DNA of 61,268 bases, taken from the NCBI GenBank assembly GCA_964547015.1, contig CAZJKT010000002.1, positions 5,841 to 67,108 on the forward strand, written 5' to 3'. Each line of letters begins with the position of its first letter. The stretch's first letter is position 1. This DNA comes from an uncultured archaeon (lineage in GTDB: Archaea; Aenigmatarchaeota; Aenigmatarchaeia; QMZS01). The notes under the pieces are model-generated. The model had not been told where the DNA came from, did not search any database, and worked only from the letters and a program-made list of their open reading frames with translations. This document shows, in pieces, positions 2,935 through 61,268 of the stretch. The position numbers were made by a program, and so were the translations under genes.

Positions 2935-3003
2935 TATAGTAGTCCTGAAGAAATTTAAAGTGCTGAAATTGGGGCTTTTTATGGAAATTAAATAGTTCTC
3001 AGG

Positions 3004-4437
3004 CTAAGTGATGATATATGCCCTACCGGCCCTATCTGCATAGGCATATTTTATCCCTATTGGAACTCCGCCGCTCCCCCCAATCAAGGTATATTCTCTG
3101 GATTCTCCTTTCGCATACGGCCCCAAAAGCTCAGCCGAGCCAAATTCGCCGCCCCTCAAAATTTCCGCCTTTTCCAGCTCCAAAATCCCCTGTCCCGTAT
3201 TTTCAAATTTAAGAGTATAAGCATATCGAGCTTCCCCGCCTTTCCTTTCGACAGCCTCTTTTTCGCGGGTGACTTTTATTTCAAGAGGTCCGTGCCTTAT
3301 TGAACTTGTCCCTGCCTGCGCCTCAAAAGAGGCCGTATAAGCAAAATCCGCAAAAACATACTGCTCTTCGGGGTAAATGCCTGATTTTTTGGGATAAATC
3401 TCCCAGCGAAAGCCCATTTCTTTAGAAGTATTCAGCCTATTATCTTCTTTAGCCCCCTCCTGCCTCAATTCAGCCTTCTCAAAACCCTCGCCAAGGCAGG
3501 AAATCCTGCAGTAATCAATTTCAACATCCGAACCCAGCCGGTTTTCAATCTCTAGAAAAAAGTAGGGGTTTGAGCTTTCGGGCCGAAATTTGTATCCGTT
3601 TGCGCCTACCCCAATATTCAGCCGGGAACCTCTTCCCCCAATTTGGTATATATATTCCTTCTGAGGCCTTTTTAGAGCGTCCGCTTTTTTTGATTTTTCG
3701 CTGATTCCGTCAATCTCGCCTTTTTGTATGATTCTGGGAACCCCAAACTCTTCCCACAATATCTTTTGGAAATATTGCCGGGTTTTTTGGTCGGAGGGTA
3801 TGCACCCCTTATCTGCCTCCTTACAAGAGGCGCTGCAATTCCAGCCAAGAGAACTATCTATTTCAGAGCCGTATTTTTTGGCAAGCTCCTCAAATTCGCT
3901 TGGGCTAATATCCGTAAATGCGATTGCGCAAGTGTAGCCTTTCCGGCAGGAAGAACCAAAAGGGTCATCCCTGCAGTCTATCTTCGGGGGGGCGGCTTCT
4001 ATAACTTCCGGCGGCGCTTCTTTTACAATTTCCGGCCCTCTCCTAAGCGCCTCTAAAATATATCTTTCCGGAATATGGCCCTGCTGCTCTAAGGCCATAT
4101 ATATTGCAGGCCCAAAAACGCCCGGCGGAAAGGGATACAGCCCCAATGACCTTAAATCCGACTTGTTGCCTGCCGGAGAGTAGTCTGAAGGCCCAAGGGC
4201 TGCGCCAAAACCGGACGCTGCAAGCAGCACAACCATACCCGCGCCAAGAACCTTCAAGGGAGTGTTTTTGTAAATTATTGGCTGATGTGGTGAAGGCTTG
4301 CCTAAATTTCCGCCGAAACAGCTTTCGCGAATAGAGCTTTTCGAAGCTCTCGCCATCAGCTCCGCAAAGCCTTGCCCGAATTTTCCGTCAATGCCCTTGG
4401 AAGGGATATTCCACATCATACATTTTTCGCTTACCAT
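3004..4437 (-). CDS. hypothetical membrane-anchored/secreted protein
   Basis: Long ORF with one hydrophobic segment (LKVLGAGMVVLLAASGFGAAL) near the N-terminus. No recognisable catalytic motif. Confidence 0.5.
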   Translation of the reverse strand: MVSEKCMMWNIPSKGIDGKFGQGFAELMARASKSSIRESCFGGNLGKPSPHQPIIYKNTPLKVLGAGMVVLLAASGFGAALGPSDYSPAGNKSDLRSLGLYPFPPGVFGPAIYMALEQQGHIPERYILEALRRGPEIVKEAPPEVIEAAPPKIDCRDDPFGSSCRKGYTCAIAFTDISPSEFEELAKKYGSEIDSSLGWNCSASCKEADKGCIPSDQKTRQYFQKILWEEFGVPRIIQKGEIDGISEKSKKADALKRPQKEYIYQIGGRGSRLNIGVGANGYKFRPESSNPYFFLEIENRLGSDVEIDYCRISCLGEGFEKAELRQEGAKEDNRLNTSKEMGFRWEIYPKKSGIYPEEQYVFADFAYTASFEAQAGTSSIRHGPLEIKVTREKEAVERKGGEARYAYTLKFENTGQGILELEKAEILRGGEFGSAELLGPYAKGESREYTLIGGSGGVPIGIKYAYADRAGRAYIIT

Positions 4438-32404: not shown

Positions 32405-33595
32405 TTAAGCGTCGATCTCTTTTTGTTTCCTTCTCCTAAGGATATTATTGACCTTGCTTTTTGCAATGGAAAGTTTTGACCCTTTATTTTTCATTTCTGC
32501 GGATTTTTGTATTTGGGATTCATACATTAAAAGAACTTTCTCAATCGTCTTGTCGGCTGAATGTTTTGACACCTCTTTTAGGCAAAGTTTTGAGAGCTTT
32601 TTTCGGTTGGCATACGCCAAATCTATTTTTCGGCTCAAGTCATCAATATTTCCGCTTTCATAAAGGTAGCCGGTCCTTGCATTTTTTATAGTTTCCTCAA
32701 GGGCCATTTCGCTCGCCCCGACAACCGGAGTCCCGCAAGCCATAGCTTCCAGTGCAACAAGCCCCTGGGTTTCGGCAATGGAAGGAAAAACAAATACATC
32801 AAGCGCAGAATAAAAAGCCCTCTGGTCTTCCTTGCTCAAAAAACCGAAAAAAGATATATTCTTTTTTCTCTTTGCAAGCCTTCGGTAATGGGCCTCAGCG
32901 GGCCCGTTCCCAATAATCACAATTTTTCCCTCAAACTTTCCGGAAACATTTATCAAATCCTCAAGCCTTTTTTCATGGCACAGCCTTCCGCAGTACCCTA
33001 TAAGCTTTTCATCGCCAATGCAGTATTTTTCCCTGAATAAATCCCTATCGACCGGCCGAAAAAAGTCCAGATCCACCCCGTTAGAGAGGACAACCGGATT
33101 TTTTATGCCTTTCTGTATGAGCCGTTTTTTTATGACTTTGGAGGGGCAGGTTACAATATCAAATGAATTAAGGAGCTTTCTTTCCCAAAGGTTATATAAC
33201 TTGGTAAGCCCTTTTTTGAGGGGCTTTCTTTTTGTAAGGTATCCCACATATTCGTCACCGGGTGTGTGGAATGTATGAAGCTTTGGGACTCCAAGCAATT
33301 TTGAAACATAAGCCCCCATTATCGCCTGCGAAAAAAGCCCATGGATATGGACAACATCAAGGCCCCTTGCATTTCTAAGGACCCATGAAGGGATTGCAAT
33401 TTTGTATCCCTCGTAATACCTAAATCCGACAGACCTTAAGGGAAACTCGTTTTTTTGCGGAACATATTCACCTGACGGGTAAAATAAAATGACCTCATGT
33501 CCCGCCTCTTCAAGCTTTCTTTTCCACAGATTGATTGTGTAGGTTACCCCGTTTATCTGCGGGAAATATGTGTCTGTAAAGATTCCAATTCTCAT
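32405..33595 (-). CDS. GT4-family glycosyltransferase
   Basis: MRIGIFTDTYFPQINGVTYTI... and the C-terminal E..G...LEAMACGTPVV motif fit GT4. Confidence 0.7.
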   Translation of the reverse strand: MRIGIFTDTYFPQINGVTYTINLWKRKLEEAGHEVILFYPSGEYVPQKNEFPLRSVGFRYYEGYKIAIPSWVLRNARGLDVVHIHGLFSQAIMGAYVSKLLGVPKLHTFHTPGDEYVGYLTKRKPLKKGLTKLYNLWERKLLNSFDIVTCPSKVIKKRLIQKGIKNPVVLSNGVDLDFFRPVDRDLFREKYCIGDEKLIGYCGRLCHEKRLEDLINVSGKFEGKIVIIGNGPAEAHYRRLAKRKKNISFFGFLSKEDQRAFYSALDVFVFPSIAETQGLVALEAMACGTPVVGASEMALEETIKNARTGYLYESGNIDDLSRKIDLAYANRKKLSKLCLKEVSKHSADKTIEKVLLMYESQIQKSAEMKNKGSKLSIAKSKVNNILRRRKQKEIDA

Positions 33596-43437: not shown

Positions 43438-44718
43438 ATGGGGCGAATATATTCAACTGAGGCCAAAAACCATTCGGATAAGGAAATTACCCTAAACGGA
43501 TGGGTAGATACTATAAGAGCCCTTGGAAAAATCAGCTTCGTCATCATAAGGGACCGATGCGGCAAAATCCAGGCGGTAGCAAAGGCCGACTCACCTGTAT
43601 TTGAGAAGATAAAGGGCCTTTCCCGGGAAGATGTGATTGAGGCCAAAGGGACAGTAAAGCTCAACGAAAATGCGGCGGGCGGCGCGGAAGTCCTTCTCTC
43701 CTCAATAGATATCCTAAACAAGTCCGAGCCCATACCCATTGAATTCTCGGGCAAAATAGAGACCAGCCTGTCAAAAAGGCTTGATTACCGCTACATTGAC
43801 CTAAGAAACCCCCAAAACAGGCTTATTTTTGAAATTAAGTCGAAAATCACAGGGCTTTTTTGCGAATTCCTCCACAAGCAGGGCTTCATTGAGATGCACA
43901 CACCAAAAATCGTCTCTTTAGGGGCAGAGGGGGGAAGCGAGCAGTTCCCTATCCTCTACTATGACAAGGAGGGCTACCTTGCCCAAAGCCCGCAACTCTA
44001 CAAGCAGTTAATGCAGGGGGCGGGATTTGAAAAAGTCTTTGAAATCGGTCCGGTTTATCGCGCTGAAAAAAGCCACACCGTCCGCCATATTTCCGAGTAT
44101 TGGGGCCTTGACTGCGAAATCTCATTTATCAAAAGCTATGAAGAAGTCATGGACCTTCTTGAAGCCGTAATCAGGTTTGCCCTCGACCGCCTGAAAGCCG
44201 AAAATATGGAGGATATCAAGTCTTTCGGAGTTGATTTCCCAAAATACAGCACGCCTTTCCCAAGGCTCACCCTTGAAGAAGCATTCAGCCTTATAGGCCG
44301 CCCTGCAAGCGACCCGACTCCTGAGGAAGAAAAATTGATAAGCCAGAAAATCCTTGAAAAATACGGCTCAGACTTCGCCTTCATCACACAGTACCCCGTC
44401 GAAGCAAGGCCTTTTTACACGCATAAAAACCCCAAAAACCCTCAGTTGACAGATTCCTTTGATGTTTTTTTCAGGGGGATTGAAATCACAACCGGCGGGC
44501 AAAGGGAACACAGGTCAGAATTTCTCGAACTCCAGGCCAAAGAAAAAAACATTTCCATAAGCTCACTTTCCTCATATATGGAAGCCTTTAAGTACGGCAT
44601 GCCGCCTCACGGGGGTTTCGGGCTTGGAATAGAGCGGTTTGTAATGCAGCTTTTGGGAATTGAAAACATCAGGGAAGCCGTCCTTTTCCCAAGGGACACC
44701 GAACGGCTGACACCTTAG
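43438..44718 (+). CDS. aspS: aspartyl-tRNA synthetase, archaeal type
   Basis: OB-fold LNGWVDTIRALGKISFVIIRD, motif 2 YRAEKSHTVRHISEYWGLDCE, and motif 3 GGFGLGIERFVMQLLG..NIREAVLFPRD. Confidence 0.85.
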   Translation: MGRIYSTEAKNHSDKEITLNGWVDTIRALGKISFVIIRDRCGKIQAVAKADSPVFEKIKGLSREDVIEAKGTVKLNENAAGGAEVLLSSIDILNKSEPIPIEFSGKIETSLSKRLDYRYIDLRNPQNRLIFEIKSKITGLFCEFLHKQGFIEMHTPKIVSLGAEGGSEQFPILYYDKEGYLAQSPQLYKQLMQGAGFEKVFEIGPVYRAEKSHTVRHISEYWGLDCEISFIKSYEEVMDLLEAVIRFALDRLKAENMEDIKSFGVDFPKYSTPFPRLTLEEAFSLIGRPASDPTPEEEKLISQKILEKYGSDFAFITQYPVEARPFYTHKNPKNPQLTDSFDVFFRGIEITTGGQREHRSEFLELQAKEKNISISSLSSYMEAFKYGMPPHGGFGLGIERFVMQLLGIENIREAVLFPRDTERLTP

Positions 44719-51631: not shown

Positions 51632-51804
51632 AATATTATATATTATATTTATTGAGTCACTTATTCCTTCAGTTTATGGGTTATGGATAATGAATTAAGC
51701 GTTCTACACTACCGCCAACTCGCGCTACTATCCGAAAAAATACCCGGCCCACCCATAAACAAAAAATCATGCAAGCGGATATATATGTATATGCATATTA
51801 TCTT

Positions 51805-53040
51805 ATGAGGATTGCCTACTTCGTTTGGGAGTACCCTCCCCTGATAGTCGGCGGGCTAGGCACTTACGCATCCCAAATGGTTCCCCAATTGGAGCTTTTG
51901 GGAAACACTATTGATGTTTTTACAATTAATGACGGAAGCCTCAATAGATGCGAAAAAAAAGGCAACATACAAATACATCGGCCCATTCTCCTAAGGGGAG
52001 CCGAAACCCTCAAAAAAATTTCCTGCGAAGAGCTCAAAAAGTGGGGGGACAACGGCGAGCTTTTCAATAAAATATTCTCATATAATTACCTTTCGGCATC
52101 CAAATTCATAAGCGAGCTTTCCAAGAAAGAAAAATATGACCTTGTTGTCGTGAACGATTGGCTGTCCGCCATCTCCGGCCTGCTTATCAAAGAAAATATG
52201 GATATGCCTGTAGTATTCCATGTCCACTCAACCGAACAGCAAAGGTCAGGCGGGGGCAGTGAACTCATCCGCGGCCTTGAAAGAGAAATGTATTTCCAAT
52301 CGGACCTTGTAATAACAGTTTCTAAGGCTATGAAGGAGCACCTGATAAGCATCGGATGCCCCGAAGAAAAGCTGAATTCTGTATGGAACGGATGCGTCCC
52401 TGAAGAGTACAGCGAAAAGCGCGTGAACAGCGAAACCCTAAAAAGCCTTATTGAGAGATATGATATTCGGGATGATGAAAAAATCGCGCTTTTTGTCGGA
52501 AGGCTGACTTCTGTAAAGGGAGCAGTAAGCTTAGTGAAAGGCTTTCCAAAAGTCCTAAAGGAATTTCCAAACACCAAATTAATTATACTGGGCATGGGTG
52601 AAGATGAAGGCGAAATATCGAGGATAATTAAAGAGCAGGGAATGGAAGATAAAGTTAGGCTCAGGACAGAATTTGTATCTGTTGAGGAGCGGATCACTCA
52701 TTATGCCCTAGCCGACCTGTGTGTTTTTCCAAGCACCTCCGAGCCTTTCGGCCTTGTTTCGCTTGAGGCGATGTGCATGGAAAGGCCGATTGTTGTTGGG
52801 GCCTCAGGAATTTCCGGGTTTAGGGAGCAGGTCATCCCCGAAGGCCCTGAGCAGACCGGCGTCCATGTTGACGGAAACAGCTCCGATGACATTGCATGGG
52901 GAATAAAAGAGCTTTTGGGGGACTGGGAAGAGGCGATTAGAATGGGCAAGCGGGGAAGGAAAAGGGCCGAGAAAATATTCAACATAAAAAAAGTTGCCCA
53001 AGACACAAACTTCTTGTATGAGGAGGCCGCCGGAATTTAA
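51805..53040 (+). CDS. GT4/GT5-type glycosyltransferase (archaeal glycogen-synthase-like)
   Basis: MRIAYFVWEYPPLIVGGLGTYA... and the C-terminal PSTSEPFGLVSLEAMCMERPIV. The start is taken at the ATG at 51805. Confidence 0.65.
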   Translation: MRIAYFVWEYPPLIVGGLGTYASQMVPQLELLGNTIDVFTINDGSLNRCEKKGNIQIHRPILLRGAETLKKISCEELKKWGDNGELFNKIFSYNYLSASKFISELSKKEKYDLVVVNDWLSAISGLLIKENMDMPVVFHVHSTEQQRSGGGSELIRGLEREMYFQSDLVITVSKAMKEHLISIGCPEEKLNSVWNGCVPEEYSEKRVNSETLKSLIERYDIRDDEKIALFVGRLTSVKGAVSLVKGFPKVLKEFPNTKLIILGMGEDEGEISRIIKEQGMEDKVRLRTEFVSVEERITHYALADLCVFPSTSEPFGLVSLEAMCMERPIVVGASGISGFREQVIPEGPEQTGVHVDGNSSDDIAWGIKELLGDWEEAIRMGKRGRKRAEKIFNIKKVAQDTNFLYEEAAGI

Positions 53041-53140: not shown

Positions 53141-54286
53141 TTAAACTAGCGTTCTCACGGCCCATTCCGTAAAATCCTTGAAAAAGCTGCACTTTTCAGG
53201 ATCATTTACCAGTTGACCGCAATTGGCATGCCTCTTCATGCTTTGCATCGGGCAAATGCCTCCACAGATAAAAACCGCAATGCAGTCCCTGCAACTTTCG
53301 TTATCCAAAACAGACCTTGAAAACCAGTTTTGCAGACTCTCTGAGTCTAAGTCTTTTCTGGATCTCAAAGTTTCATCGAATATGTCCCTGCCAAAATAGA
53401 TAGTGCAGTAGCCAAGTCTGCCATCCGCAGTGACAACAAGCGTGGCGGTATCAAAGTCCGAGGCGCAGGTTCTTAGAGCAGTAGATTGATATTTTAGTGC
53501 GCTGACGACCTGGGAAGCCGGAGAATTCAGCTTAATTCCTTCCTTTTCGCAAAAAAGAAGGACACTTTTCATTTTTTCCGAAAACAATTTTCCATTTACG
53601 CCCCAGCCATAGTCGTACTGGGGCCTATTGACCGTCAGCGAATCCGGTTTAAGTTCCAATACAGCCCACCTGCAAATTTTATCCAAATTATTCAGAGTCG
53701 CCTCCGAAGGGGTAATTAGTATAAAGTTCTCGACTTCGTTTGACTTAAGCAGATTAAAGCCTTTCAATGAAACTTCAAACGTGCTTCTGCCGTCGGAAAA
53801 CCTTCGATTCATATCATTTACTTCCCTGGGGCCGTCAAGCGAAACGCCCACCCGAAAGTTGTGCTTCTTAAAATACCCGACTTTATCATCGTCTATGAGG
53901 GAGCCATTTGTAGTAATATGATACTTTGGAATCAAATCGCCTTTATTTGAATCTACATAATCCACAGACCTTTGAATGATATCGAACTTCAGCAATGGCT
54001 CTCCTCCAAAAAAGTGGATGTGTATTCCTTTATCTTTGGCATCTTTGTTATGCCTTATGAGCAATTCAAGGGCTTTCCTTAAGGAATCCCAATCCAACTC
54101 TCCCTCCAATTTTTTTGGAGATTCAAAGCAATAAGTGCAATTGTAATTACATTTTTCAGTCAAAACCAATCTGAGATGATTCACCCTCACTTTTGAATGC
54201 TTGACCTGTGCCAGCCTATCTATAAAGAATTCATCTTCCGAGAAATCGGCATCCACAAGAAGGCCATTTTCAACCAGAAAGTCCAA
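53141..54286 (-). CDS. radical SAM enzyme with a complete C-terminal SPASM domain (peptide-maturase type)
   Basis: CNYNCTYCF (CxxxCxxC). SPASM motifs: C-x14-G-x4-C (CASDFDTATLVVTADGRLGYC), CRDCIAVFICGGIC (Cx2Cx5Cx3C), and a further Cys. The only available start is TTG, which is in frame with the upstream small ORF across one TAA. Confidence 0.8.
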   Translation of the reverse strand: MDFLVENGLLVDADFSEDEFFIDRLAQVKHSKVRVNHLRLVLTEKCNYNCTYCFESPKKLEGELDWDSLRKALELLIRHNKDAKDKGIHIHFFGGEPLLKFDIIQRSVDYVDSNKGDLIPKYHITTNGSLIDDDKVGYFKKHNFRVGVSLDGPREVNDMNRRFSDGRSTFEVSLKGFNLLKSNEVENFILITPSEATLNNLDKICRWAVLELKPDSLTVNRPQYDYGWGVNGKLFSEKMKSVLLFCEKEGIKLNSPASQVVSALKYQSTALRTCASDFDTATLVVTADGRLGYCTIYFGRDIFDETLRSRKDLDSESLQNWFSRSVLDNESCRDCIAVFICGGICPMQSMKRHANCGQLVNDPEKCSFFKDFTEWAVRTLV

Positions 54287-54292
54287 AGTCTC

Positions 54293-54478
54293 TTAGGCCA
54301 TAACAGATTTTCCAAGATTATCCGGGCATATTGCCTGTGATTTCTCAAAGCACTTCAGTAGCTTTTTTAATTCTTTGTCACATGAATAAATTGATAGATA
54401 TGTTCTATGGAATAGAATACAACCATCACCCTTATCGAATATTCTCACAAACGGAGAAAGCTTAAAATTTCTCCCCAT
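54293..54478 (-). CDS. small protein, possibly a PqqD/RRE-like peptide-recognition module (or the detached N-terminus of the SPASM enzyme)
   Basis: MGRNFKLSPFVRIFDKGDGCILFHRTYLSIYSCDKELKKLLKCF resembles the beta-strands plus helix at the start of PqqD-like domains. It is in frame with 53141..54286. The alternative start at 54508 overlaps the upstream gene. Confidence 0.35.
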   Translation of the reverse strand: MGRNFKLSPFVRIFDKGDGCILFHRTYLSIYSCDKELKKLLKCFEKSQAICPDNLGKSVMA

Positions 54479-55844
54479 GACCCTTTGATCTTTGCCTTTG
54501 CTCTTCATAATACCTATATGACTTTCTCTCCAAGGCTTCCTGAATACACCTGAATAAATCAGTAAATTCTTCCCTATCCATCTCGCGCGTCAAAATCGGT
54601 CTGCCTCTAAATGGATCCTCTCCCGCCTCAATCTTATGATGCAGGTAGGTCGCATAGCCAGACCAATTTACGGTATTAGGATCAATAATTCCGCTTGCTA
54701 CCGCATAATCCCAGAGTTTTGTGCCGGGAAAAGCCAATACGGGGCTAACCCAACCGGTATCCAGTGGCTCTTCCTCAATAAATCTGATTGTATCTTGCAG
54801 GTCCTGCTTGGTCTCAAATGGAGACCCTGCCATAAAGCCAGAAGCCACTCTTATCCCATTATCCTTACATACCCTTATTGCCTTACGATTATCCTCGACA
54901 GAAACGGTATTGTTTTTAAGATATCCCAGGGTTCTATCGGATCCGGTCTCGAAGCCAAAAACTATAGAGATTACATTCATATCCCCGAGATACTGAGCCG
55001 TCTCATTATCCATAGTATCTGCTCTCGAAAAGCATCCAAACATAGCCTCTTTATCCAAGCCTCTTTCTTTAATCAGAGCGCTAATCTTTTTGACCCTCGG
55101 TTTACTCAGAGCAAAATTGTCATCAAAAAATAAGACCGAGTCTATGCCGTATTTGTTTACAAGTTCCTCCACTTCACCGACCACATATTCAGGCGAAAAG
55201 TATCTGACCTTGTTTCCCCAAAATGCAGAACTTGCGCAATATTTGCACGAATGGGGGCACCCTCTTGAACTGATGATTTGTGTTTCCCTCGCAATCCTCC
55301 CCGTATCGCTCTGGATGGGCTGCGCATAATATGCCATGTCGAAGAGATCTCTGTTCGGATATGGTATCGCATCCAGATTAGAGATAACTTCCCTTTTATC
55401 TGTAGTTTTGATATATCCGGCTTCGTCCCTAAATGAAATGCCCTTTATCTTTCCAAGATTGGTGACCTCTCCATCATGAGTGTTATTGAGGATATCTAAA
55501 AATGTTCTTTCGCCTTCTCCTTTAACCACGATGTCGATATACTCCTCAAAACCGTTCCAAGCGCTATAATGGGTGCCACCAACGATAAGGGGCTTTCCGA
55601 GATCTTCCCGGTTTTTCCTGGCAAAATCCTGCAGCAAACCATGCTCCATCGTCAAGCATGAGACACCGATCAGATCCGGGTCATAGGCCGAAACATCAGA
55701 ATACATATTTTTTGAGGTGGCTGCGTCATGAATCCTGATATCCAGATTCCTCGGATAATATTTCTGCGCATAAGAAGCCAGGTATCCTAAACCCAACTTT
55801 GGATATCTGGACTCGGGGTTCAAATTTATTAAAGAAACCTTCAT
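54462..55844 (-). CDS. B12-binding-domain radical SAM enzyme (class B)
   Basis: An N-terminal Rossmann-like B12-binding region (MKVSLINLNP...LGLGYLASY...DLIGVSC), then SSRGCPHSCKYCAS (CxxxCxxC). Confidence 0.75.
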   Translation of the reverse strand: MKVSLINLNPESRYPKLGLGYLASYAQKYYPRNLDIRIHDAATSKNMYSDVSAYDPDLIGVSCLTMEHGLLQDFARKNREDLGKPLIVGGTHYSAWNGFEEYIDIVVKGEGERTFLDILNNTHDGEVTNLGKIKGISFRDEAGYIKTTDKREVISNLDAIPYPNRDLFDMAYYAQPIQSDTGRIARETQIISSRGCPHSCKYCASSAFWGNKVRYFSPEYVVGEVEELVNKYGIDSVLFFDDNFALSKPRVKKISALIKERGLDKEAMFGCFSRADTMDNETAQYLGDMNVISIVFGFETGSDRTLGYLKNNTVSVEDNRKAIRVCKDNGIRVASGFMAGSPFETKQDLQDTIRFIEEEPLDTGWVSPVLAFPGTKLWDYAVASGIIDPNTVNWSGYATYLHHKIEAGEDPFRGRPILTREMDREEFTDLFRCIQEALERKSYRYYEEQRQRSKGHGEKF

Positions 55845-55848
55845 AGGG

Positions 55849-56613
55849 CTATACCTCTACGGGAAAATCAACGAATCTTATATCTAAAGAGAACTTTTTC
55901 TCAAGCGGTTCCTTTAATGCACTGATGCCTACAGTTTCGGTTGCATGATGCCCCGCATCTATCAAATTCAGTTTGGCTTCTTTGGCAACAAGATACTCCG
56001 CAAGGCGGGCATCCCCTCCTATGAAAACATCCACTTTGCTTTTTACGGCTTCATTTACCAGATGCCCGGATGCTCCTGAACTGAACGCAATGGATTTTAC
56101 CTTTGCCTTTCCCAAAGGGAAAACTTTACAGTGGGCATTCAGCACCTTATTGACCCTATCAGCAAACTTGTTAAGATCTTCCTCCTTGGCCAACTCTCCG
56201 ATATAGCCTAGTGGAGAATCCCCATACATATAAAATGGCTTTTTGATGGCCATGTCCATTTTCCTGAAAAACTGTACTGCGTTGCTTATCTCAGGATGTA
56301 TATCTAGAGGTATATGTGCGCCGTATAGAGAGATACCATTATCCAAAAGTATTTTGATCCTGTTTTTCATAACTCCAGTCACCGGTTCGGAGTTGGTTGA
56401 AAACATTCCATGGTGAACGATTACAATATCGAACTTCTCTTCAGCGGCGTACTCAAAAGTTTCCTGTGAGGAATCTACTGCCAAGAGAATCTTTTTAACC
56501 TCGGGCTTACCTTCAACCAATAAACCATTCAGCAGATATGGGTCTCTAACTGCATTTATCCTGAAATATCCGTCCAGGAATCCTACGACCTCTGCCAATC
56601 GTGCCATAATCAA
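55849..56613 (-). CDS. NIF3-family (YbgI / 'GTP cyclohydrolase 1 type 2') dinuclear-metal protein
   Basis: The DPYLLNGLLVEG...ILLAVDSS...DIVIVHHG and ...DAGHHATE motifs fit NIF3. Confidence 0.75.
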   Translation of the reverse strand: MIMARLAEVVGFLDGYFRINAVRDPYLLNGLLVEGKPEVKKILLAVDSSQETFEYAAEEKFDIVIVHHGMFSTNSEPVTGVMKNRIKILLDNGISLYGAHIPLDIHPEISNAVQFFRKMDMAIKKPFYMYGDSPLGYIGELAKEEDLNKFADRVNKVLNAHCKVFPLGKAKVKSIAFSSGASGHLVNEAVKSKVDVFIGGDARLAEYLVAKEAKLNLIDAGHHATETVGISALKEPLEKKFSLDIRFVDFPVEV

Positions 56614-56647
56614 AAACTACCGATTATTTATATAGGTGAGAACTATT

Positions 56648-56716
56648 ATGGAAATAGCAAAGAAAGAAGTAAAAATGGGGTCAGTAGATGCCACAAGGAA
56701 TTGCGGGTCTATCTAA
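56648..56716 (+). CDS. unlisted 22-aa ORF MEIAKKEVKMGSVDATRNCGSI (candidate precursor peptide)
   Basis: Hand translation. GGTGA lies 9-13 nt upstream of the ATG. The stop codon TAA is 20 nt before the radical-SAM ATG at 56737. The ORF is too short for the ORF track. Confidence 0.35.
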   Translation: MEIAKKEVKMGSVDATRNCGSI

Positions 56717-56736
56717 ATGTTTTATTTTAGGTTTTT

Positions 56737-57630
56737 ATGGTTCATCATTCTTTAAAGAGCCCGTTTGTTATATTATCCAGCAAATGCAATCTAAACTGCA
56801 AATATTGTTTCTATAATCAAAACAAGGACCGGAATAACCTCGAATTAGATTCTAATGTCCTGGTCGATTTCCTGTCATTTAATTCAGGTATCATAAAAGA
56901 TATTATTCTCACCGGAGGAGAGCCTTTTATGTATAAAGATATCTATGTCCTATTAGATGCTCTTTCCAATAGCAATATCAAGGCACGAATAAACTCAAAC
57001 CTAACCGTTCTGGACAAACGAAAATTGACAAGAAACTTGGGGATTTTGTCCAGAGTAGACACTACGATAGACCACATTGATCCGGAGATAAATGACAAAA
57101 TCAGAGGATTTTCTGAAAAGACTATGTCTAACTTAAGATGGTTCAAATCCAAGAATATACCCCTAGAGATTACGATTCCCTTGTCAAAGAAGAACTGCTT
57201 TGATATAGAAAGAATCTATCTCGAACTGCGCAAACTTAAGCCTAAAGAGATTTTTATACAGCCGGTTGATATCTTCACCAAATCACTTGATGAAGACTAC
57301 AGCTTAGCTTCGCTTGGAAAAGCCGAGCTAAAAATTATACTGGACCGGTTGAAGCCCTGGGCAAGGGATTATCATCGCACAAGAGAATTGGGATTAATGA
57401 GAAACTATTATCTTAAAGATAAGTTTCCTGAAGGGGATTGCCAAATGAAAAAAGATCTGTTTGTTATCGACTCTGACGGCGCAGTCTATCCGTGCTTTCA
57501 CAGGCACGATCTCCGCTGCGGAAATATCTACTCGGATCCTCCTAAATCGATTATGGATGATTTAGCAATAAAACAGAACTCAATTGACATTAAAAAGTGT
57601 TTTGGTCCAAAATGCATTCCCCTATTCTGA
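56737..57630 (+). CDS. radical SAM enzyme with a twitch/partial-SPASM C-terminus
   Basis: CNLNCKYCF, GGEP, and the C-terminal C-x12-G-x4-C (CQMKKDLFVIDSDGAVYPC) plus CFGPKC. Confidence 0.75.
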   Translation: MVHHSLKSPFVILSSKCNLNCKYCFYNQNKDRNNLELDSNVLVDFLSFNSGIIKDIILTGGEPFMYKDIYVLLDALSNSNIKARINSNLTVLDKRKLTRNLGILSRVDTTIDHIDPEINDKIRGFSEKTMSNLRWFKSKNIPLEITIPLSKKNCFDIERIYLELRKLKPKEIFIQPVDIFTKSLDEDYSLASLGKAELKIILDRLKPWARDYHRTRELGLMRNYYLKDKFPEGDCQMKKDLFVIDSDGAVYPCFHRHDLRCGNIYSDPPKSIMDDLAIKQNSIDIKKCFGPKCIPLF

Positions 57631-58401
57631 CAGGAGCTCCCGTATTTTCTGCACATCCGCATCAATTATTATTTCTTCGAATATTTTCCCGAGTTCCTTG
57701 GAAGCCAGAGTAGGATCACCTAATATGCCATTGGGCGAAAATTCTTTTACATCTCCCTTCTCAAGAAGTTCCTTATGATCAAAGGGTTTTGTCCTGCCCG
57801 CAACTATTTTGCTCTTTCTCACCTTTTCAGGACACCTATATAGCATAGCAGAAGTTTCGTGCAGGCAGGCGTGGCATGAATGTAACCGGCAATCATCTAA
57901 TCTGTTTCCGAGGAATTTTCTTGCGGCGGTATCGACCAGATCATCGAAATCATCTAATCTCACAAAAATAATTTTGGCAGAAACATTTTCTCGGATTCCC
58001 TTCAAAGCATTCTCGATGGGCCCCATATTGCCTCCGTGGGTGGTTATTATGATTATATTTCTAAATCCATGCTTGTCCAGAGATATACAAACTTCCCGAA
58101 GAACCTGTTGAAACGTTTTTTCTGTCAAGCTTATAGTACCCGGAAAGCTCATATGATATTTCGAGCAGCCTAGAGACAATACCGGAGCCACCAAGGCATT
58201 GCCTAATTTATGCGCCACGCCTCTGGCGATAATATATGCATCAAGTGTGTCAGTATTTAACGGCAAATGCGGTCCATGCTGCTCCATTGCGCCTATCATC
58301 ACTAAAACATTCTTCTTACCCCCATCCATCTCATTTTTTATCTCTTCCCAAGTCATATCTTCTATGAACATTTTCTCACACCAATGGGAACATGACGACA
58401 T
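57622..58401 (-). CDS. creatininase-family amidohydrolase (MftE/ArfB-like)
   Basis: GAMEQHGPHLPLNTDT, TTHGGN and HACLHETS are the metal-binding motifs of the creatininase family. The likely start is MFIEDMTWEEI at 58371. Confidence 0.75.
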   Translation of the reverse strand: MSSCSHWCEKMFIEDMTWEEIKNEMDGGKKNVLVMIGAMEQHGPHLPLNTDTLDAYIIARGVAHKLGNALVAPVLSLGCSKYHMSFPGTISLTEKTFQQVLREVCISLDKHGFRNIIIITTHGGNMGPIENALKGIRENVSAKIIFVRLDDFDDLVDTAARKFLGNRLDDCRLHSCHACLHETSAMLYRCPEKVRKSKIVAGRTKPFDHKELLEKGDVKEFSPNGILGDPTLASKELGKIFEEIIIDADVQKIRELLSE

Positions 58402-59599
58402 CGCGAATATCTGCCTTCCCGGATAGATTCTGAATCATCCGGTCTATACCCAAGCCGAGCCCTCCGGTTGGAGGCATACCATAAAGTAGAGCTTCTCTGA
58501 ATGAGGAATCATATCTTTTTTGGTCTTTATCCCTTGAAGCCATTTGGCCTTCTTCCAATTTGGAAATAGTATCATAATCCGTCTCAACAGTGTAGCCATG
58601 AAAGATATCTACCCCATTAAGATACAGCCTAAATTCCTCCGAATAGATTTTATCAGAACTCTTGGCTAGGGGACATACTTCCAAAGGAAAATCATAAATT
58701 AGGGTTGGTGATGCCAGTTTTGGCAAAACCTGTCGACGAAATTCGACAAAACGCTCTGTGGGATTCTTAAAAGAGTGTCCTACCTCTTCCATAACACCTT
58801 CGAACGAGAACCTCTTGACCGGACTATTTATACCAAATATCGGAGAAACGTGAGCGAATAGAGTTTCTGAGAGATCCATCATATCATAATAATTTGAATA
58901 AGCCTTGAAAATATCCATTTCTAAAAACTCGGGAAGATATCCTTTAGATAATCCTTCGTTCCTATATACAGGCCCCACTTCATATATCTTCTCCAATCCC
59001 CCTATAATCAACAGCTTTAATTTTGGCTCAAGTGCCTTTCTCAAATAAACTTCTCTATCCTTAGCCAACCATTTTGCGGAGAACTCATTTGATTTTGAAG
59101 AGTAACTCTTGCTGAGAAGTGTTGGTGTGGACACCTCCAGATAACCTTCTTCGGACATCACATTCCTAAGAATTGCCAGAGCTTTCGACCTTTTCTTAAA
59201 CAGATCAAGCGTATCTGAATTCATCATAATCGATTCATGGGTATTGGCTCGGTTGGCTGGATTATTAAAATAGCCTGTGTTTGGAAGAAGTTTACCTGAT
59301 CTTTCAATCACACTAAGTTCGGTGATATCTAAATAAGGAAGTCCGTTCTTTCCATTATACACCCTGCCTTTAACTTCTACAAGGTCCCCATTTTTTACTT
59401 CGGGAGGTAATTCTAATCCATCTATGGAATGCCTCATCCTCAGCCCGCCAGATTCGTTGTTTAGGAAGTAATAATGAATCTCTTTGCTGGATCTATTTGA
59501 AGACACTATTCTTCCCTGAGCCAAAACCTCCTCGGCAGAAATCTCTCCACTCAAAAAGTGGGCTGCGCTGACAGTCAGCCCATCTTTTAACCCTATCAT
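58376..59599 (-). CDS. shortened, divergent class II lysyl-tRNA-synthetase-like protein
   Basis: OB-fold (GDLVEVKGRVYNG...LDITELSVI), motif 1 (RSKALAILRNVMSEEGYLEVSTPTL), motif 2 (YRNEGLSKGYLPEFLEMDIFKAY), and the LysRS-type motif 3 (ALLYGMPPTGGLGLGIDRM...IRDVVMFP). It is 407 aa, against about 500 for typical LysRS-II. Confidence 0.7.
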   Translation of the reverse strand: MIGLKDGLTVSAAHFLSGEISAEEVLAQGRIVSSNRSSKEIHYYFLNNESGGLRMRHSIDGLELPPEVKNGDLVEVKGRVYNGKNGLPYLDITELSVIERSGKLLPNTGYFNNPANRANTHESIMMNSDTLDLFKKRSKALAILRNVMSEEGYLEVSTPTLLSKSYSSKSNEFSAKWLAKDREVYLRKALEPKLKLLIIGGLEKIYEVGPVYRNEGLSKGYLPEFLEMDIFKAYSNYYDMMDLSETLFAHVSPIFGINSPVKRFSFEGVMEEVGHSFKNPTERFVEFRRQVLPKLASPTLIYDFPLEVCPLAKSSDKIYSEEFRLYLNGVDIFHGYTVETDYDTISKLEEGQMASRDKDQKRYDSSFREALLYGMPPTGGLGLGIDRMIQNLSGKADIRDVVMFPLV

Positions 59600-59680: not shown

Positions 59681-59883
59681 TGCGCTGGCCGGGATTCGAA
59701 AACCCTTTCCAACGCCAAAATTGCAGTAAATTTTGCGCGAAGCGCGAATCTGCTTTCTTTGACGTAAAGGACTTTCTTTTGCAAAGAAAGTCTTTTCCCG
59801 GGTCGCCGGCTTGGCAAGCCGGTATCATAGCCAATGTCCTAAGACCAAAATCATGGGATTTTGGCTATCTAGACGACCAGCGC
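59681..59883 (-). tRNA. tRNA-Gly(GCC) with a 96-nt T-loop insertion (about position 53/54) and about 33 extra nt in the D-arm region
   Basis: Hand fold of the minus strand: acceptor GCGCTGG/CCAGCGC, anticodon arm CCGGC-TTGCCAA-GCCGG, variable CGAC. T-stem CCGGG (59801-59797) and CCCGG (59693-59689); T-loop TTCGAAT (59700-59694); insertion 59796-59701. The D region reads GTCTAG-[AUAGCCAAAAUCCCAUGAUUU]-UGGUCUUAGGAC-A-[UUGGCUAUGAU]. Discriminator A. Confidence 0.7.
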
Positions 59884-59927
59884 ATAACTATAATTCCCCA
59901 TTAACTATATATTGTGGAATTAGGATT

Positions 59928-61268
59928 ATGGAGATTACGGCCACAGCAGAGCTCAGGATCGCTTTTTCAGAAGAATTAGGCGTGCAGGCCTCATCTCGGA
60001 TACTTGAAAAAATCAAAAAGCATTCGGGGCCCAATTACCAAAGCGGGGTCTACACAGCAGGGCGGTTTTTTTTAGTATTGCAGGGAGATGAGGAATTGTC
60101 CTGCCTTATATTGTCCCTTGTAAAAAACATATCCGAATGGATAAGAGATTACCGGATTGGGCTAAGAGATTACTACATCCCAAATTATGAAATTAGCTTT
60201 GAGTGCGACCATGTCGGAAAGCTGGATATCCCACACACAGAAACAGTTATCTGCAACGGAAAGGAATGCAAGGCTGTTTTCAAAGACATTGAAAAGGACT
60301 TCTTAAAAAGCGGAGGGGTGAAAAGAATAATTTGCCTTATTCTCTCAAAAACTTCAGGCAAGAAATGGGGTATGGTAGCCCAACCCCAAAGTCCCCCTGC
60401 GCAAGGGCCAAACCCCTACGAAGAAGTTGAAAGCCTCCGGCTTGCAAAAAAAGGCCTTACCAAAGGGGAATATTTCTATCGGCCACGGGGCATGAAAATG
60501 CTTTTGGAAATAAAAAAAAGCGTTCGTCGGGAATTTGCTTCATTCGGATTGGAGGAATATTTCCCGACCACCTACACAAACTTCAGGGCCCTTGAAAAAA
60601 AAGGGCTTATCGAAATATTGCCTCCCGAAACCTTTTTTCTTCTTGCATCTGAACCAATTGACGCCGCAAAGGCTTATGAGCAATACTATCTCAAGGGCAA
60701 AGTCCCCCCCATCCCGCAAAAGCCCAAAGGGGCGATATACCACGAAATACCTTTCAATCTTTACCATGCCCTGCAAAAAACCCGCATAAAAAATCCCCAC
60801 TACCTCTACACACTCCAAAATTCAAAAATGCTAGTAACTTTCTTCGAGAAAGAGGGAAATTACGCTTCGGCTAAAGAGGCGATTTTGGAAAAGCTAAAAT
60901 CCCTATGCAACGGGCACGGGCTTTCATTTCGAATTATTTCGCGGCCGCTTAATGGGGAAATTCTGCGTTTCCAGTGCCTTCTCCCCCACAATAAAACATG
61001 GCTTACCGTTGCCGAAGCCTACTTTTCTGAAAGCCACTATACCCGGCCCTTTAAAATCCGCGGCATGAGCGGCCAAGTAAACATAAGCCTGGAAAATATT
61101 TTGCTCTCCCTCATCGGACAGGGGCTGCCAAAAAAAGAAAAATTATTGGGGCCCGAAACGGAAATCAAATTCCATGAAGACCCCTTGCCCGAAGAATCAA
61201 CAGATATAGAGGACAGTAAACCTCCCCCCAGCAAGCCGGGGGGCTTCAACTATCTTATAAATTCCTGC
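59928..61268 (+). CDS. large unlisted ORF, 447 codons open to the window end; faint class II aaRS-like core without canonical motif 2/3 arginines
   Basis: I translated it codon by codon from the ATG at 59928 and found no stop through 61268. It is absent from the track, presumably because it has no stop. KGEYFYRPRGMKMLLEIKKSVRREFASFGLEEYFPT..NFRALEKKG...PETFFL resembles aaRS motif 1 and its surroundings. PFNLYHALQK...NPHYLYTL and GQVNISLENILLSL resemble the motif 2/3 regions, but the Arg residues are missing. Confidence 0.6.
   Translation, partial: MEITATAELRIAFSEELGVQASSRILEKIKKHSGPNYQSGVYTAGRFFLVLQGDEELSCLILSLVKNISEWIRDYRIGLRDYYIPNYEISFECDHVGKLDIPHTETVICNGKECKAVFKDIEKDFLKSGGVKRIICLILSKTSGKKWGMVAQPQSPPAQGPNPYEEVESLRLAKKGLTKGEYFYRPRGMKMLLEIKKSVRREFASFGLEEYFPTTYTNFRALEKKGLIEILPPETFFLLASEPIDAAKAYEQYYLKGKVPPIPQKPKGAIYHEIPFNLYHALQKTRIKNPHYLYTLQNSKMLVTFFEKEGNYASAKEAILEKLKSLCNGHGLSFRIISRPLNGEILRFQCLLPHNKTWLTVAEAYFSESHYTRPFKIRGMSGQVNISLENILLSLIGQGLPKKEKLLGPETEIKFHEDPLPEESTDIEDSKPPPSKPGGFNYLINSC

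Follow-up and report, generated by a model that had tools for sequence, protein, structure and literature searches.

A putative radical-SAM peptide-maturation cluster with a synthetase-like ligase in an uncultured archaeon

We analysed a gene cassette at positions 53141 to 59599 of a 61,268-nucleotide (nt) stretch of contig CAZJKT010000002.1 from an uncultured archaeon of the Aenigmatarchaeota; the whole stretch is hereafter called the window. The cassette brings together three radical S-adenosylmethionine (SAM) enzymes, a mini-peptide of 22 amino acid residues (aa), a creatininase-family hydrolase and a ligase resembling lysyl-tRNA synthetase (LysRS). The open reading frames (ORFs) of the window were scanned with Pfam and NCBIfam profiles under the curated cutoffs, and the genomic contexts of related loci, numbered with the prefix L, were compared with it. 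All eight features reported in a preliminary description are present, and the ORF map and both profile collections bear out its gene list and predicted domains. The parts of the cassette, with their corrected positions, are as follows:

53141-54286, minus strand: catalytic part of an RRE-radical-SAM-SPASM maturase, 381 aa as called; Radical_SAM 68 bits
54293-54508, minus strand: RRE-like fragment of the maturase, 71 aa, or 61 aa from Met11
54462-55844, minus strand: class-B (B12-binding) radical-SAM enzyme, 460 aa; B12-binding 39.8 bits, Radical_SAM 88.5 bits
55849-56613, likely 55849-56607 with an ATG at 56607, minus strand: NIF3 family protein; TIGR00486 172.3 bits against a cutoff of 130.55
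56608-56647, no strand: divergent spacer of 40 nt, separating the NIF3-B12-maturase operon from the peptide-twitch operon
56648-56716, plus strand: precursor mini-ORF of 22 aa, MEIAKKEVKMGSVDATRNCGSI, ending 20 nt upstream of the twitch gene
56737-57630, plus strand: twitch-type radical-SAM enzyme, 297 aa; Radical_SAM 67.7 bits, partial SPASM 25.2 bits
57622-58401, minus strand: creatininase-family amidohydrolase, 259 aa, or 249 aa from an ATG at 58371; creatininase family 213 bits
58376-59599, minus strand: LysRS-like class-II ligase, 407 aa; tRNA-synt_2 185 bits

The minus-strand operon begins with NIF3, and the plus-strand operon with the precursor. The divergent control region between them had been given as 123 nt; with NIF3 likely starting at 56607, the non-coding spacer is 40 nt long and contains the TATA-like sequence TTTATATA at 56627-56634. 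The 22-codon ORF on its plus-strand side stands as a real, conserved precursor, with its position corrected to 56648-56716. Of the minus-strand genes described as tightly packed, the SPASM and RRE pieces are one gene, and the overlap between the RRE fragment and the B12 gene amounts to 17-47 nt according to the chosen start. The LysRS-like gene lies directly upstream of the hydrolase gene, with a 4-nt gap or a 26-nt overlap.

The window peptide has a basic N-terminal part, an invariant cysteine (Cys19) and the core CGSI. Mini-ORFs were compared among the window, L008, L004, L005, L010, L098-L100, L104-L107 and L007. A small ORF was found at every locus where upstream DNA is present, and it always adjoins both radical-SAM genes, that is, the RRE-SPASM maturase and the twitch enzyme. 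The peptides from the related loci are:

L008: MKIKQKEIKLKIESHKTCGSI, with a CGSI core
L004: MEIREKTSELENIETHKSCG, interrupted by the contig end
L005: MKVKKIKKLKRSIKGNSCQSGS
L104, L105 and L107: MKIKRKKQVKINTSTSVKLCMQSGGCAEKPAKNR
L106: MKAKRRKKSKVKVSSRVKLCMQSGGCAEK
L098 and L100: MKLKVKKPTINKKILLSHACMQSGGLAEGPRTPKPIKSQ
L099: MKLIKKGKARNKKILLSHACMQSGGLAEGPRNPKPVKSK
L007: …SVKLCMRSHGCQEE…, the similar N-terminal part of a longer ORF (110 aa)
L010: MESKFNPEIEGINAENLPELSCTMSCQ

The precursors measure about 21-39 aa, some with long extensions beyond the core, and the invariant cysteine lies 18-20 residues from Met1 in all of them except the L010 peptide. The cores read CGSI, CQSGS or CMQSGG. Between L098 and L099, five synonymous and no non-synonymous changes fall in the core over 21 codons, and six non-synonymous changes fall in the leader; between L104 and L106, the core has six synonymous and no non-synonymous changes over 13 codons, and the leader has nine non-synonymous ones. 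Because the core accumulates only synonymous changes while the leaders diverge, the pattern points to purifying selection on a translated peptide. We take the mini-ORF to be a real, conserved precursor, and such ORFs accompany the homologous radical-SAM genes at other loci as well. Eight of the mini-peptides were compared with the NCBIfam precursor models, with no matches.

The 71-codon ORF that the preliminary description listed as a separate RRE-like gene is instead the N-terminal peptide-binding domain of the SPASM maturase, severed by a stop codon. It lies in the same frame as the SPASM ORF, and the gap between the two consists of one TAA (54293-54295) and two codons, the TAA falling just ahead of the last helix of the RRE. 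The maturase homologues are all single proteins of 400-470 aa that cross the stop position, their N-terminal 80-100 residues align to the 71-codon ORF, and one tblastn high-scoring segment pair from the L008 maturase continues through the TAA. Contigs from three samples carry the identical sequence, TAA included, at identities of at least 99.99%, so that a sequencing artefact or read error does not account for it. Recoding of the in-frame stop was considered and rejected as unlikely, since among the long ORFs of the window TAA serves as the normal terminator more often (23 of 48) than any other stop codon. To judge from the reading frame, the maturase here may either be made as two pieces or have been recently disabled in this population.

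In an alignment of the maturase homologues, the CX3CX2C cysteines (C120, C124 and C127) and the seven SPASM cysteines (C348, C368, C406, C409, C415, C419 and C440) are invariant. In the AlphaFold model of the intact homologue P0002 (pLDDT 90.8), the N-terminus forms three strands and helices corresponding to the RRE, and the model superposes over its full length on TigE and on CteB, a sactisynthase that bears an RRE, with a TM score of 0.74. The best NCBIfam matches of the maturase are all peptide maturases, namely the nif11 maturase, CcpM, PapB, the SCIFF maturase and QhpD. Their scores are below the curated cutoffs (138 versus 519 for the nif11 maturase, 127 versus 500 for CcpM and 115 versus 425 for SCIFF), including that of PapB, the best full-length curated match, at 118.8 bits versus 340. 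The radical-SAM proteins of the cluster group with peptide maturases rather than with well-characterised non-peptide families, none of whose cutoffs they pass. The maturase family is rare, with 46 relatives at E<=1e-10 in a word-indexed search.

The twitch enzyme has its CX3CX2C motif at residues 17-24 and four conserved C-terminal cysteines for one auxiliary cluster. Its orthologues are 42-45% identical in L008 and L010 and about 30% identical in L005 and L096-L107. This family is also rare: an exhaustive search of 1.84 billion proteins gave 94 representatives at E<=1e-30, and a word-indexed search gave eight relatives at E<=1e-8. The structural model is mediocre (pLDDT 74.6) and matches anSME, CteB, SkfB and viperin alike at TM scores of about 0.55, indicating no single reaction. 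The public gene call on the identical contigs gives a 233-aa protein that begins at a methionine inside the ORF and lacks the CX3CX2C motif; it is the 297-aa form with which the homologues align. At the loci with a twitch gene only (high-GC bacterial loci, L013 and L126), a similar mini-ORF was looked for and none was found; the peptide module is a subset of the twitch family. A scan of a genome collection with the twitch alignment was dominated by the generic CX3CX2C pattern and returned only distant radical-SAM genes, L070 among them.

The maturase gene adjoins the twitch gene in eleven sequence-distinct loci from archaea and bacteria, i.e., the window, L005, L007, L008, L010, L096, L098/L100, L099, L102, L104/L105/L107 and L106; L004 is not among these adjacent pairs, as its contig ends there, and L125 offers too little sequence to be of use. 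The number of independent loci is modest. In most of them a peptidase stands beside the radical-SAM pair. It belongs to the creatininase family in the window, L008 and L010, and also in L122 and L070; to the S51 family in L004, L005, L008, L096, L102 and L104-L107; and to the M29 and M1 families in L007. A ligase gene directly adjoins the hydrolase gene in the window, L008, L010 (GCS2 then creatininase), L122 (creatininase then PaaK-like) and L005 (AlaRS-like then S51). The core radical-SAM pair therefore does co-occur in the genomes of distant archaea and bacteria, and the recurrence of a synthetase paralog and a creatininase-family hydrolase at several loci identifies them as components rather than chance neighbours.

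Three of the related regions have further gene content. At L007 (1924-12917), three paralogous RRE-SPASM maturases accompany the twitch homologue, an MFS transporter and two oxidoreductases. L122 (6762-13571), on the archaeal metagenome contig Ga0207433_10001575, encodes a 42-aa peptide ending SGACNCDCEAAEGD, a maturase homologue, a B12-like radical-SAM enzyme, an uncharacterised 233-aa protein, a creatininase-family protein and a PaaK-like adenylating enzyme, with an uncharacterised 359-aa protein upstream. L070 (6096-11799), on contig JBDRHU010000033.1 of a Patescibacteria metagenome-assembled genome, is a separate cluster of similar ingredients without a similar mini-ORF. It contains a creatininase-family gene, a gene for an RNHCP-domain protein, a B12 radical-SAM gene, SPASM and twitch-like radical-SAM genes and a further, split radical-SAM gene; the C-terminus of its SPASM protein is weakly PqqD-like (14 bits, E 0.058).

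Diverged class-II synthetase paralogs of the Lys, Asp, Ala or Phe type occur at nine loci:

Window: LysRS-like, 407 aa
L004: LysRS-II-like, 438 aa, adjoining a bona fide class-I LysRS (352 bits versus 148)
L008: AspRS-like, 394 aa, 214 bits against a cutoff of 353, adjoining a bona fide AspRS
L005: AlaRS-like, 378 aa
L102, L104-L107 and L106: AlaRS-like, 400-442 aa
L098-L100: PheRS-alpha core only, 240 aa

The window protein scores 235.7 bits on PRK00484 (cutoff 468) and 224.7 bits on TIGR00499 (cutoff 427.6), the latter in two separate stretches. It keeps a weak N-terminal OB domain and the class-II motifs 2 (YRNEG) and 3 (GGLGLGIDR), with about 70 residues missing between the motifs. At the aligned positions of the lysine pocket, whose roles we presume from E. 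coli LysU, ELY is replaced by DIF and N.F.E by H.Y.V. Its best non-self relatives are ordinary bacterial LysRS proteins at 31-34% identity, with none closer among 5.8 billion proteins. The AlaRS-like proteins reach 141-161 bits on the Pfam AlaRS family model. All of the synthetase paralogs score below the curated cutoffs and, by these scores, are distinct from the housekeeping enzymes. In place of a synthetase paralog, L010 has a GCS2 carboxylate-amine ligase adjoining its creatininase gene, and L122 has a PaaK-like adenylating enzyme beside the creatininase, as judged from a TSGTMGKPK motif and weak PaaK matches (E=5e-4). The comparison of contexts indicates that the ligase and the hydrolase are conserved components and that the family of the ligase is interchangeable.

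Several bona fide synthetase genes were located in these regions. The window has an AspRS gene at 43438-44718. Class-I LysRS lies at 2196-3767 of L004, TrpRS at 7814-8881 of L005 and AspRS at 6514-7827 of L008, where it overlaps the S51 gene by 4 nt; ValRS and GlyRS were recognised at 2172-5854 of L070 by reading of the sequences, and a ThrRS-type gene at 6078-7922 of L126 by its Pfam domains. By impression, housekeeping synthetases seem to lie beside the clusters more often than chance would place them there. At 59928-61268 on the plus strand, running past the window end and divergent from the LysRS-like gene, lies an ORF of at least 446 aa that is faintly like the methanogen-type SerRS (PRK00960 31 bits against a cutoff of 611; tRNA_bind_4 30 bits). 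No such gene was found in the diverged related loci, and it is not counted as a member of the module.

The 328-nt spacer between the LysRS-like and SerRS-like genes holds a GC-rich, highly structured element of about 200 nt (59683-59884), with a 10-bp closing stem GCGCUGGUCG/CGGCCAGCGC, four or five perfect hairpins and RNAfold z-scores of -6.3 on the plus strand and -5.5 on the minus strand. It has no Rfam match, and ARAGORN, run with and without introns, found no credible tRNA in this region or elsewhere in the window. All available copies of the element are identical. Candidate roles for it are that of a leader or riboswitch-like element and that of a small RNA with a link to the synthetase paralogs. 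The sole Rfam match at gathering level in the window, to the eukaryotic H/ACA snoRNA SNORA17 (32801-32923, minus strand; 36 bits, E 0.002), lies inside a 396-aa glycosyltransferase-like ORF and is probably a false positive.

The creatininase-family hydrolase retains the motifs for metal binding and catalysis (EQHG, D, HGGN and H..ETS). MftE (TIGR03964) is its best curated model at 143.0 bits, under the cutoff of 172, and the creatininase model gives 124; on the ArfB model it scores 33 bits against a cutoff of 180. The L008 orthologue is 49% identical, occupies the same position and scores 127 on MftE.

Two proteins of the cassette stand outside its conserved core. The B12 enzyme has the domain make-up of class B, with 39.8 bits on PF02310 (cutoff 32.1) and 88.5 bits on PF04055, and scores under the equivalog cutoffs of HpnJ (126 versus 578) and ApyD (112 versus 750). 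Homologues with 26-28% identity adjoin creatininase and SPASM genes in L070 and L122, and none is present in the closest relatives L004, L005, L008 and L010. It recurs only in these two more distant clusters and is an accessory, probably a recurrent tailoring enzyme that shares one operon with the maturase. NIF3 is a bona fide member of its family by TIGR00486, yet tblastn found it in no related locus, and it is most likely a housekeeping passenger in the operon rather than a component of the module. The GT4 glycosyltransferase gene at 51769-53040 is likewise not conserved with the module. The flanking genes of the window are archaeal housekeeping genes, encoding aIF5A, Spt5, Kae1 and the S15 ribosomal protein.

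The mini-ORF, the RRE-SPASM maturase and the recurrent gene set support the view of the preliminary description that the cassette is a maturation cluster for a peptide that is made by the ribosome and modified after translation (a RiPP). We favour, with a probability of roughly 0.55, the reading that it represents a small undescribed archaeal and bacterial family of radical-SAM peptide-maturation clusters, sacti- or ranthipeptide-like, that also employ a synthetase-like amino-acid ligase. In such a pathway, the RRE domain would bind the basic leader, and the SPASM enzyme would join the Cys19 thiol to a carbon of the downstream Ser21 or of the C-terminal Ile22, as do PapB, CteB and the SCIFF maturase. 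PapB is reported to link a Cys thiol to a C-terminal residue (PMC12373016), and a link of this kind would fit a core of Cys plus three residues. The twitch enzyme would make a second radical modification, and the B12 enzyme, in the source genome, would add a C-methyl group. Close to the modified core, the creatininase-family hydrolase would break an amide bond and either take off the leader or, as MftE does, release the short modified C-terminus. The LysRS-like enzyme would form an aminoacyl-adenylate of lysine or a related amino acid and pass the aminoacyl group on to the peptide or the released fragment, where an amine, hydroxyl or thiol would accept it. Since the paralog is of the Lys, Asp, Ala or Phe type according to the locus, the products are proposed to be lineage-specific. 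More tentatively, the class-II synthetase cores may aminoacylate the radical-SAM-modified mini-peptide or its released core, tRNA-free or via the ~200-nt structured RNA, the fold having been recruited repeatedly as a diversity-generating step; we consider this possible but doubtful.

Several observations weigh against the peptide-maturation reading. The thioether, the cleavage site and the aminoacyl acceptor are all predicted from family resemblance, and none of the radical-SAM proteins of the cluster reaches any curated equivalog cutoff in NCBIfam. The TAA lies within the RRE, so this maturase copy may be inactive. No peptidase adjoins the cluster in L098-L100, and the 13-kb contig of L007 has no ligase. 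The synthetase type differs despite a shared CGSI core, being Lys-like in the window and Asp-like in L008, and roles in immunity or as decoys would account for such variability no less well than tailoring. In L004, L005, L008, L070 and L126, bona fide synthetase genes of the housekeeping kind adjoin the clusters, which may hint at a link to translation that peptide tailoring leaves unexplained. Finally, the synthetase complement of the source genome was judged from the 61-kb window only.

The gene set could also be read as a pearlin-style scaffold, in which the ligase charges a reusable carrier, the peptide, with an amino acid, this residue is remodelled by the radical-SAM enzymes, and the hydrolase frees a small metabolite or cofactor and regenerates the peptide. 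The direct adjacency of ligase and hydrolase in the window, L008, L010, L122 and L005, the variable ligase type beside a nearly constant peptide core, and the best hydrolase score on MftE, which frees a small modified fragment, would all suit a carrier, as would the position of the archaeal clusters, the window included, amid housekeeping genes. The underlying logic has been described for peptide aminoacyl-tRNA ligases (PEARLs) (PMC12945691). However, synthetase-type enzymes activate an amino acid and not a peptide carboxylate, so that a PEARL-like C-terminal extension is unexpected; no LanB-like PEARL occurs in the cluster; and the strict Cys and core motif, together with the long extensions after the core in some precursors, suggest that the peptide itself is the modified substrate. 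We regard the scaffold as unlikely. A lower probability still attaches to the synthetase paralogs as self-protection, that is, as resistant copies or decoys against a synthetase-inhibiting product of the microcin C or ascamycin kind. Producer clusters that carry a resistant synthetase copy are familiar, and real synthetase genes adjoin several of the clusters. In L106, the gene just upstream of the precursor (2945-3934) belongs to the S66 LD-carboxypeptidase family, to which we also assign MccF, the immunity peptidase of microcin C; this is a possible hint of immunity. Yet the paralogs are truncated or strongly diverged, like the PheRS core and the AlaRS-like proteins with their 141-161 bits, and would replace housekeeping enzymes poorly; L010 and L122 hold unrelated ligases in the same position; no MccB/ThiF-type adenylyl-transferase is present; and a nearly identical core would need different synthetase targets from locus to locus.

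Chance adjacency would explain the locus without any single cassette, the peptide and radical-SAM pair merely lying amid a housekeeping NIF3, LysRS and amidohydrolase in a compact archaeal genome. NIF3 is indeed not conserved with the module, the window is dense in translation-related genes (AspRS, aIF5A, Kae1, Spt5 and S15), and the synthetase set is seen only within its 61 kb. On the other hand, in distant archaea and bacteria the radical-SAM pair is again accompanied by the hydrolase and a ligase, in differing gene orders, the LysRS-like protein is far under the LysRS cutoffs and differs at the positions aligned to the lysine pocket, and relatives retain true housekeeping copies beside the paralogs. 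For the hydrolase and the ligase, chance adjacency is thereby largely refuted, and for the cassette as a whole it is very improbable. The preliminary description had offered, as its alternative, a pterin- or deazaflavin-type cofactor branch in which NIF3 would act as GTP cyclohydrolase alongside radical-SAM methylases and a formamide hydrolase resembling ArfB. NIF3 does score 152 bits on the model for 'type 2 GTP cyclohydrolase I', whose cutoff is 414, and the creatininase family includes ArfB. This proposal is hardly tenable, given that the hydrolase scores 33 bits against the ArfB cutoff of 180 while reaching 143 on MftE and 124 on the creatininase model, that the genes conserved with it encode a peptide and a peptide maturase with an RRE, and that NIF3 is in no related locus.

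If the ligase of the favoured peptide-maturation reading does aminoacylate the peptide or its fragment, the synthetase fold would have entered peptide tailoring on at least four separate occasions, which would bear on how synthetase paralogs gain non-translational roles. Radical-SAM peptide maturation and synthetase-like tailoring are each known; we have not found them described together, nor a family of one-Cys, fixed-distance peptides with two radical-SAM enzymes, a peptidase and interchangeable synthetase paralogs. A full-text search of the open-access literature returned no comparable radical-SAM or RiPP cluster with a synthetase-like gene or a creatininase, and no curated NCBIfam model describes the pathway, in agreement with the statement of the preliminary description that it knew of no pathway combining these parts. 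The pathway is compact, a peptide of 21-39 residues with four or five soluble enzymes, hence directly testable. The paralogs may also present a pitfall for annotation, as pipelines might count them as housekeeping synthetases and overstate the translational gene sets of poorly studied lineages.

Judged by its domain content and profile scores, the cluster is not a member of the mycofactocin, PEARL, HxsB/HxsC, EpmA or known defence systems. It shares with mycofactocin the short precursor, a SPASM radical-SAM enzyme with an RRE (interrupted by the TAA in the window), a creatininase-family hydrolase and a Cys-Gly near the C-terminus. However, the window peptide ends NCGSI and not Val-Tyr, and its relatives carry CGSI, CQSGS or CMQSGG with an extension and have no C-terminal Tyr. 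MftC (TIGR03962) is outside the best 25 families for both window radical-SAM proteins, and the L107 twitch protein reaches 42.9 bits on it versus 265. The domains of MftD (FMN dehydrogenase) and MftF (GT2) are both missing among the ORFs scanned between 42.8 and 61.3 kb, where the neighbouring glycosyltransferase is a GT4 enzyme. In addition, the RRE of the intact homologues is fused to the maturase, and there are extra twitch and B12 enzymes and a synthetase paralog. Membership of the cassette in a mycofactocin-like system falls on these points and on the MftE score (143 versus 172). In the case of HxsB/HxsC, the only likeness is the pairing of a long and a short radical-SAM gene; the window maturase scores 102.6 versus 370 on HxsB, and the L107 pair 133.8 versus 370 and 46.3 versus 268 on HxsB and HxsC. 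Of the PADLOC defence models, only two gave anything: pVip matched N-terminal radical-SAM cores (46-58 bits across some 110 residues), and the candidate model PDC-M51A weakly matched the B12 protein (35 bits); the ligase, the hydrolase and NIF3 had no match.

Class-II cores that pass an activated amino acid to a protein side chain and not to tRNA are found in EpmA/PoxA and in amino acid:carrier-protein ligases, and EpmA has a lysine aminomutase partner, EpmB. The LysRS-like protein reaches 109.1 bits on the EpmA model TIGR00462 (cutoff 286.9) and, unlike EpmA, has a weak OB domain and the context of a radical-SAM peptide cluster. PEARLs of the pearlin pathways (TglB, AmmB and BhaB) also put an amino acid on a small ribosomal scaffold that is remodelled and cleaved by a protease, but they are LanB-like, use aminoacyl-tRNA and phosphorylate the peptide C-terminus, whereas the ligase of the cluster is itself synthetase-like; no lantibiotic-dehydratase-like domain was found by Pfam or NCBIfam in any cluster protein. 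Synthetase homologues that add an amino acid to a non-tRNA acceptor include the AlaRS-like AcmF (ascamycin) and the IleRS-like SbzA (SB-203208), which act on nucleoside sulfamates or sulfonamides in actinomycetes, and the review of such tailoring makes no mention of radical-SAM enzymes or RiPPs (PMC12945691). In the cluster, unlike with AcmF and SbzA, four class-II types occupy one and the same place, in the company of a ribosomal mini-peptide and radical-SAM maturases. By sequence and by structure, the maturase is best matched by the sacti- and ranthipeptide enzymes (CteB, PapB, ScfB and QhpD), with which it shares the radical-SAM core, a full SPASM domain and a short Cys precursor encoded next to it; an N-terminal RRE is seen in the intact homologue P0002 and is interrupted by the TAA in the window. 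What sets the cluster apart from those systems is a precursor only some 21-39 aa long whose one invariant Cys keeps a fixed distance from Met1, an obligate twitch partner, a conserved peptidase and a synthetase-like ligase.

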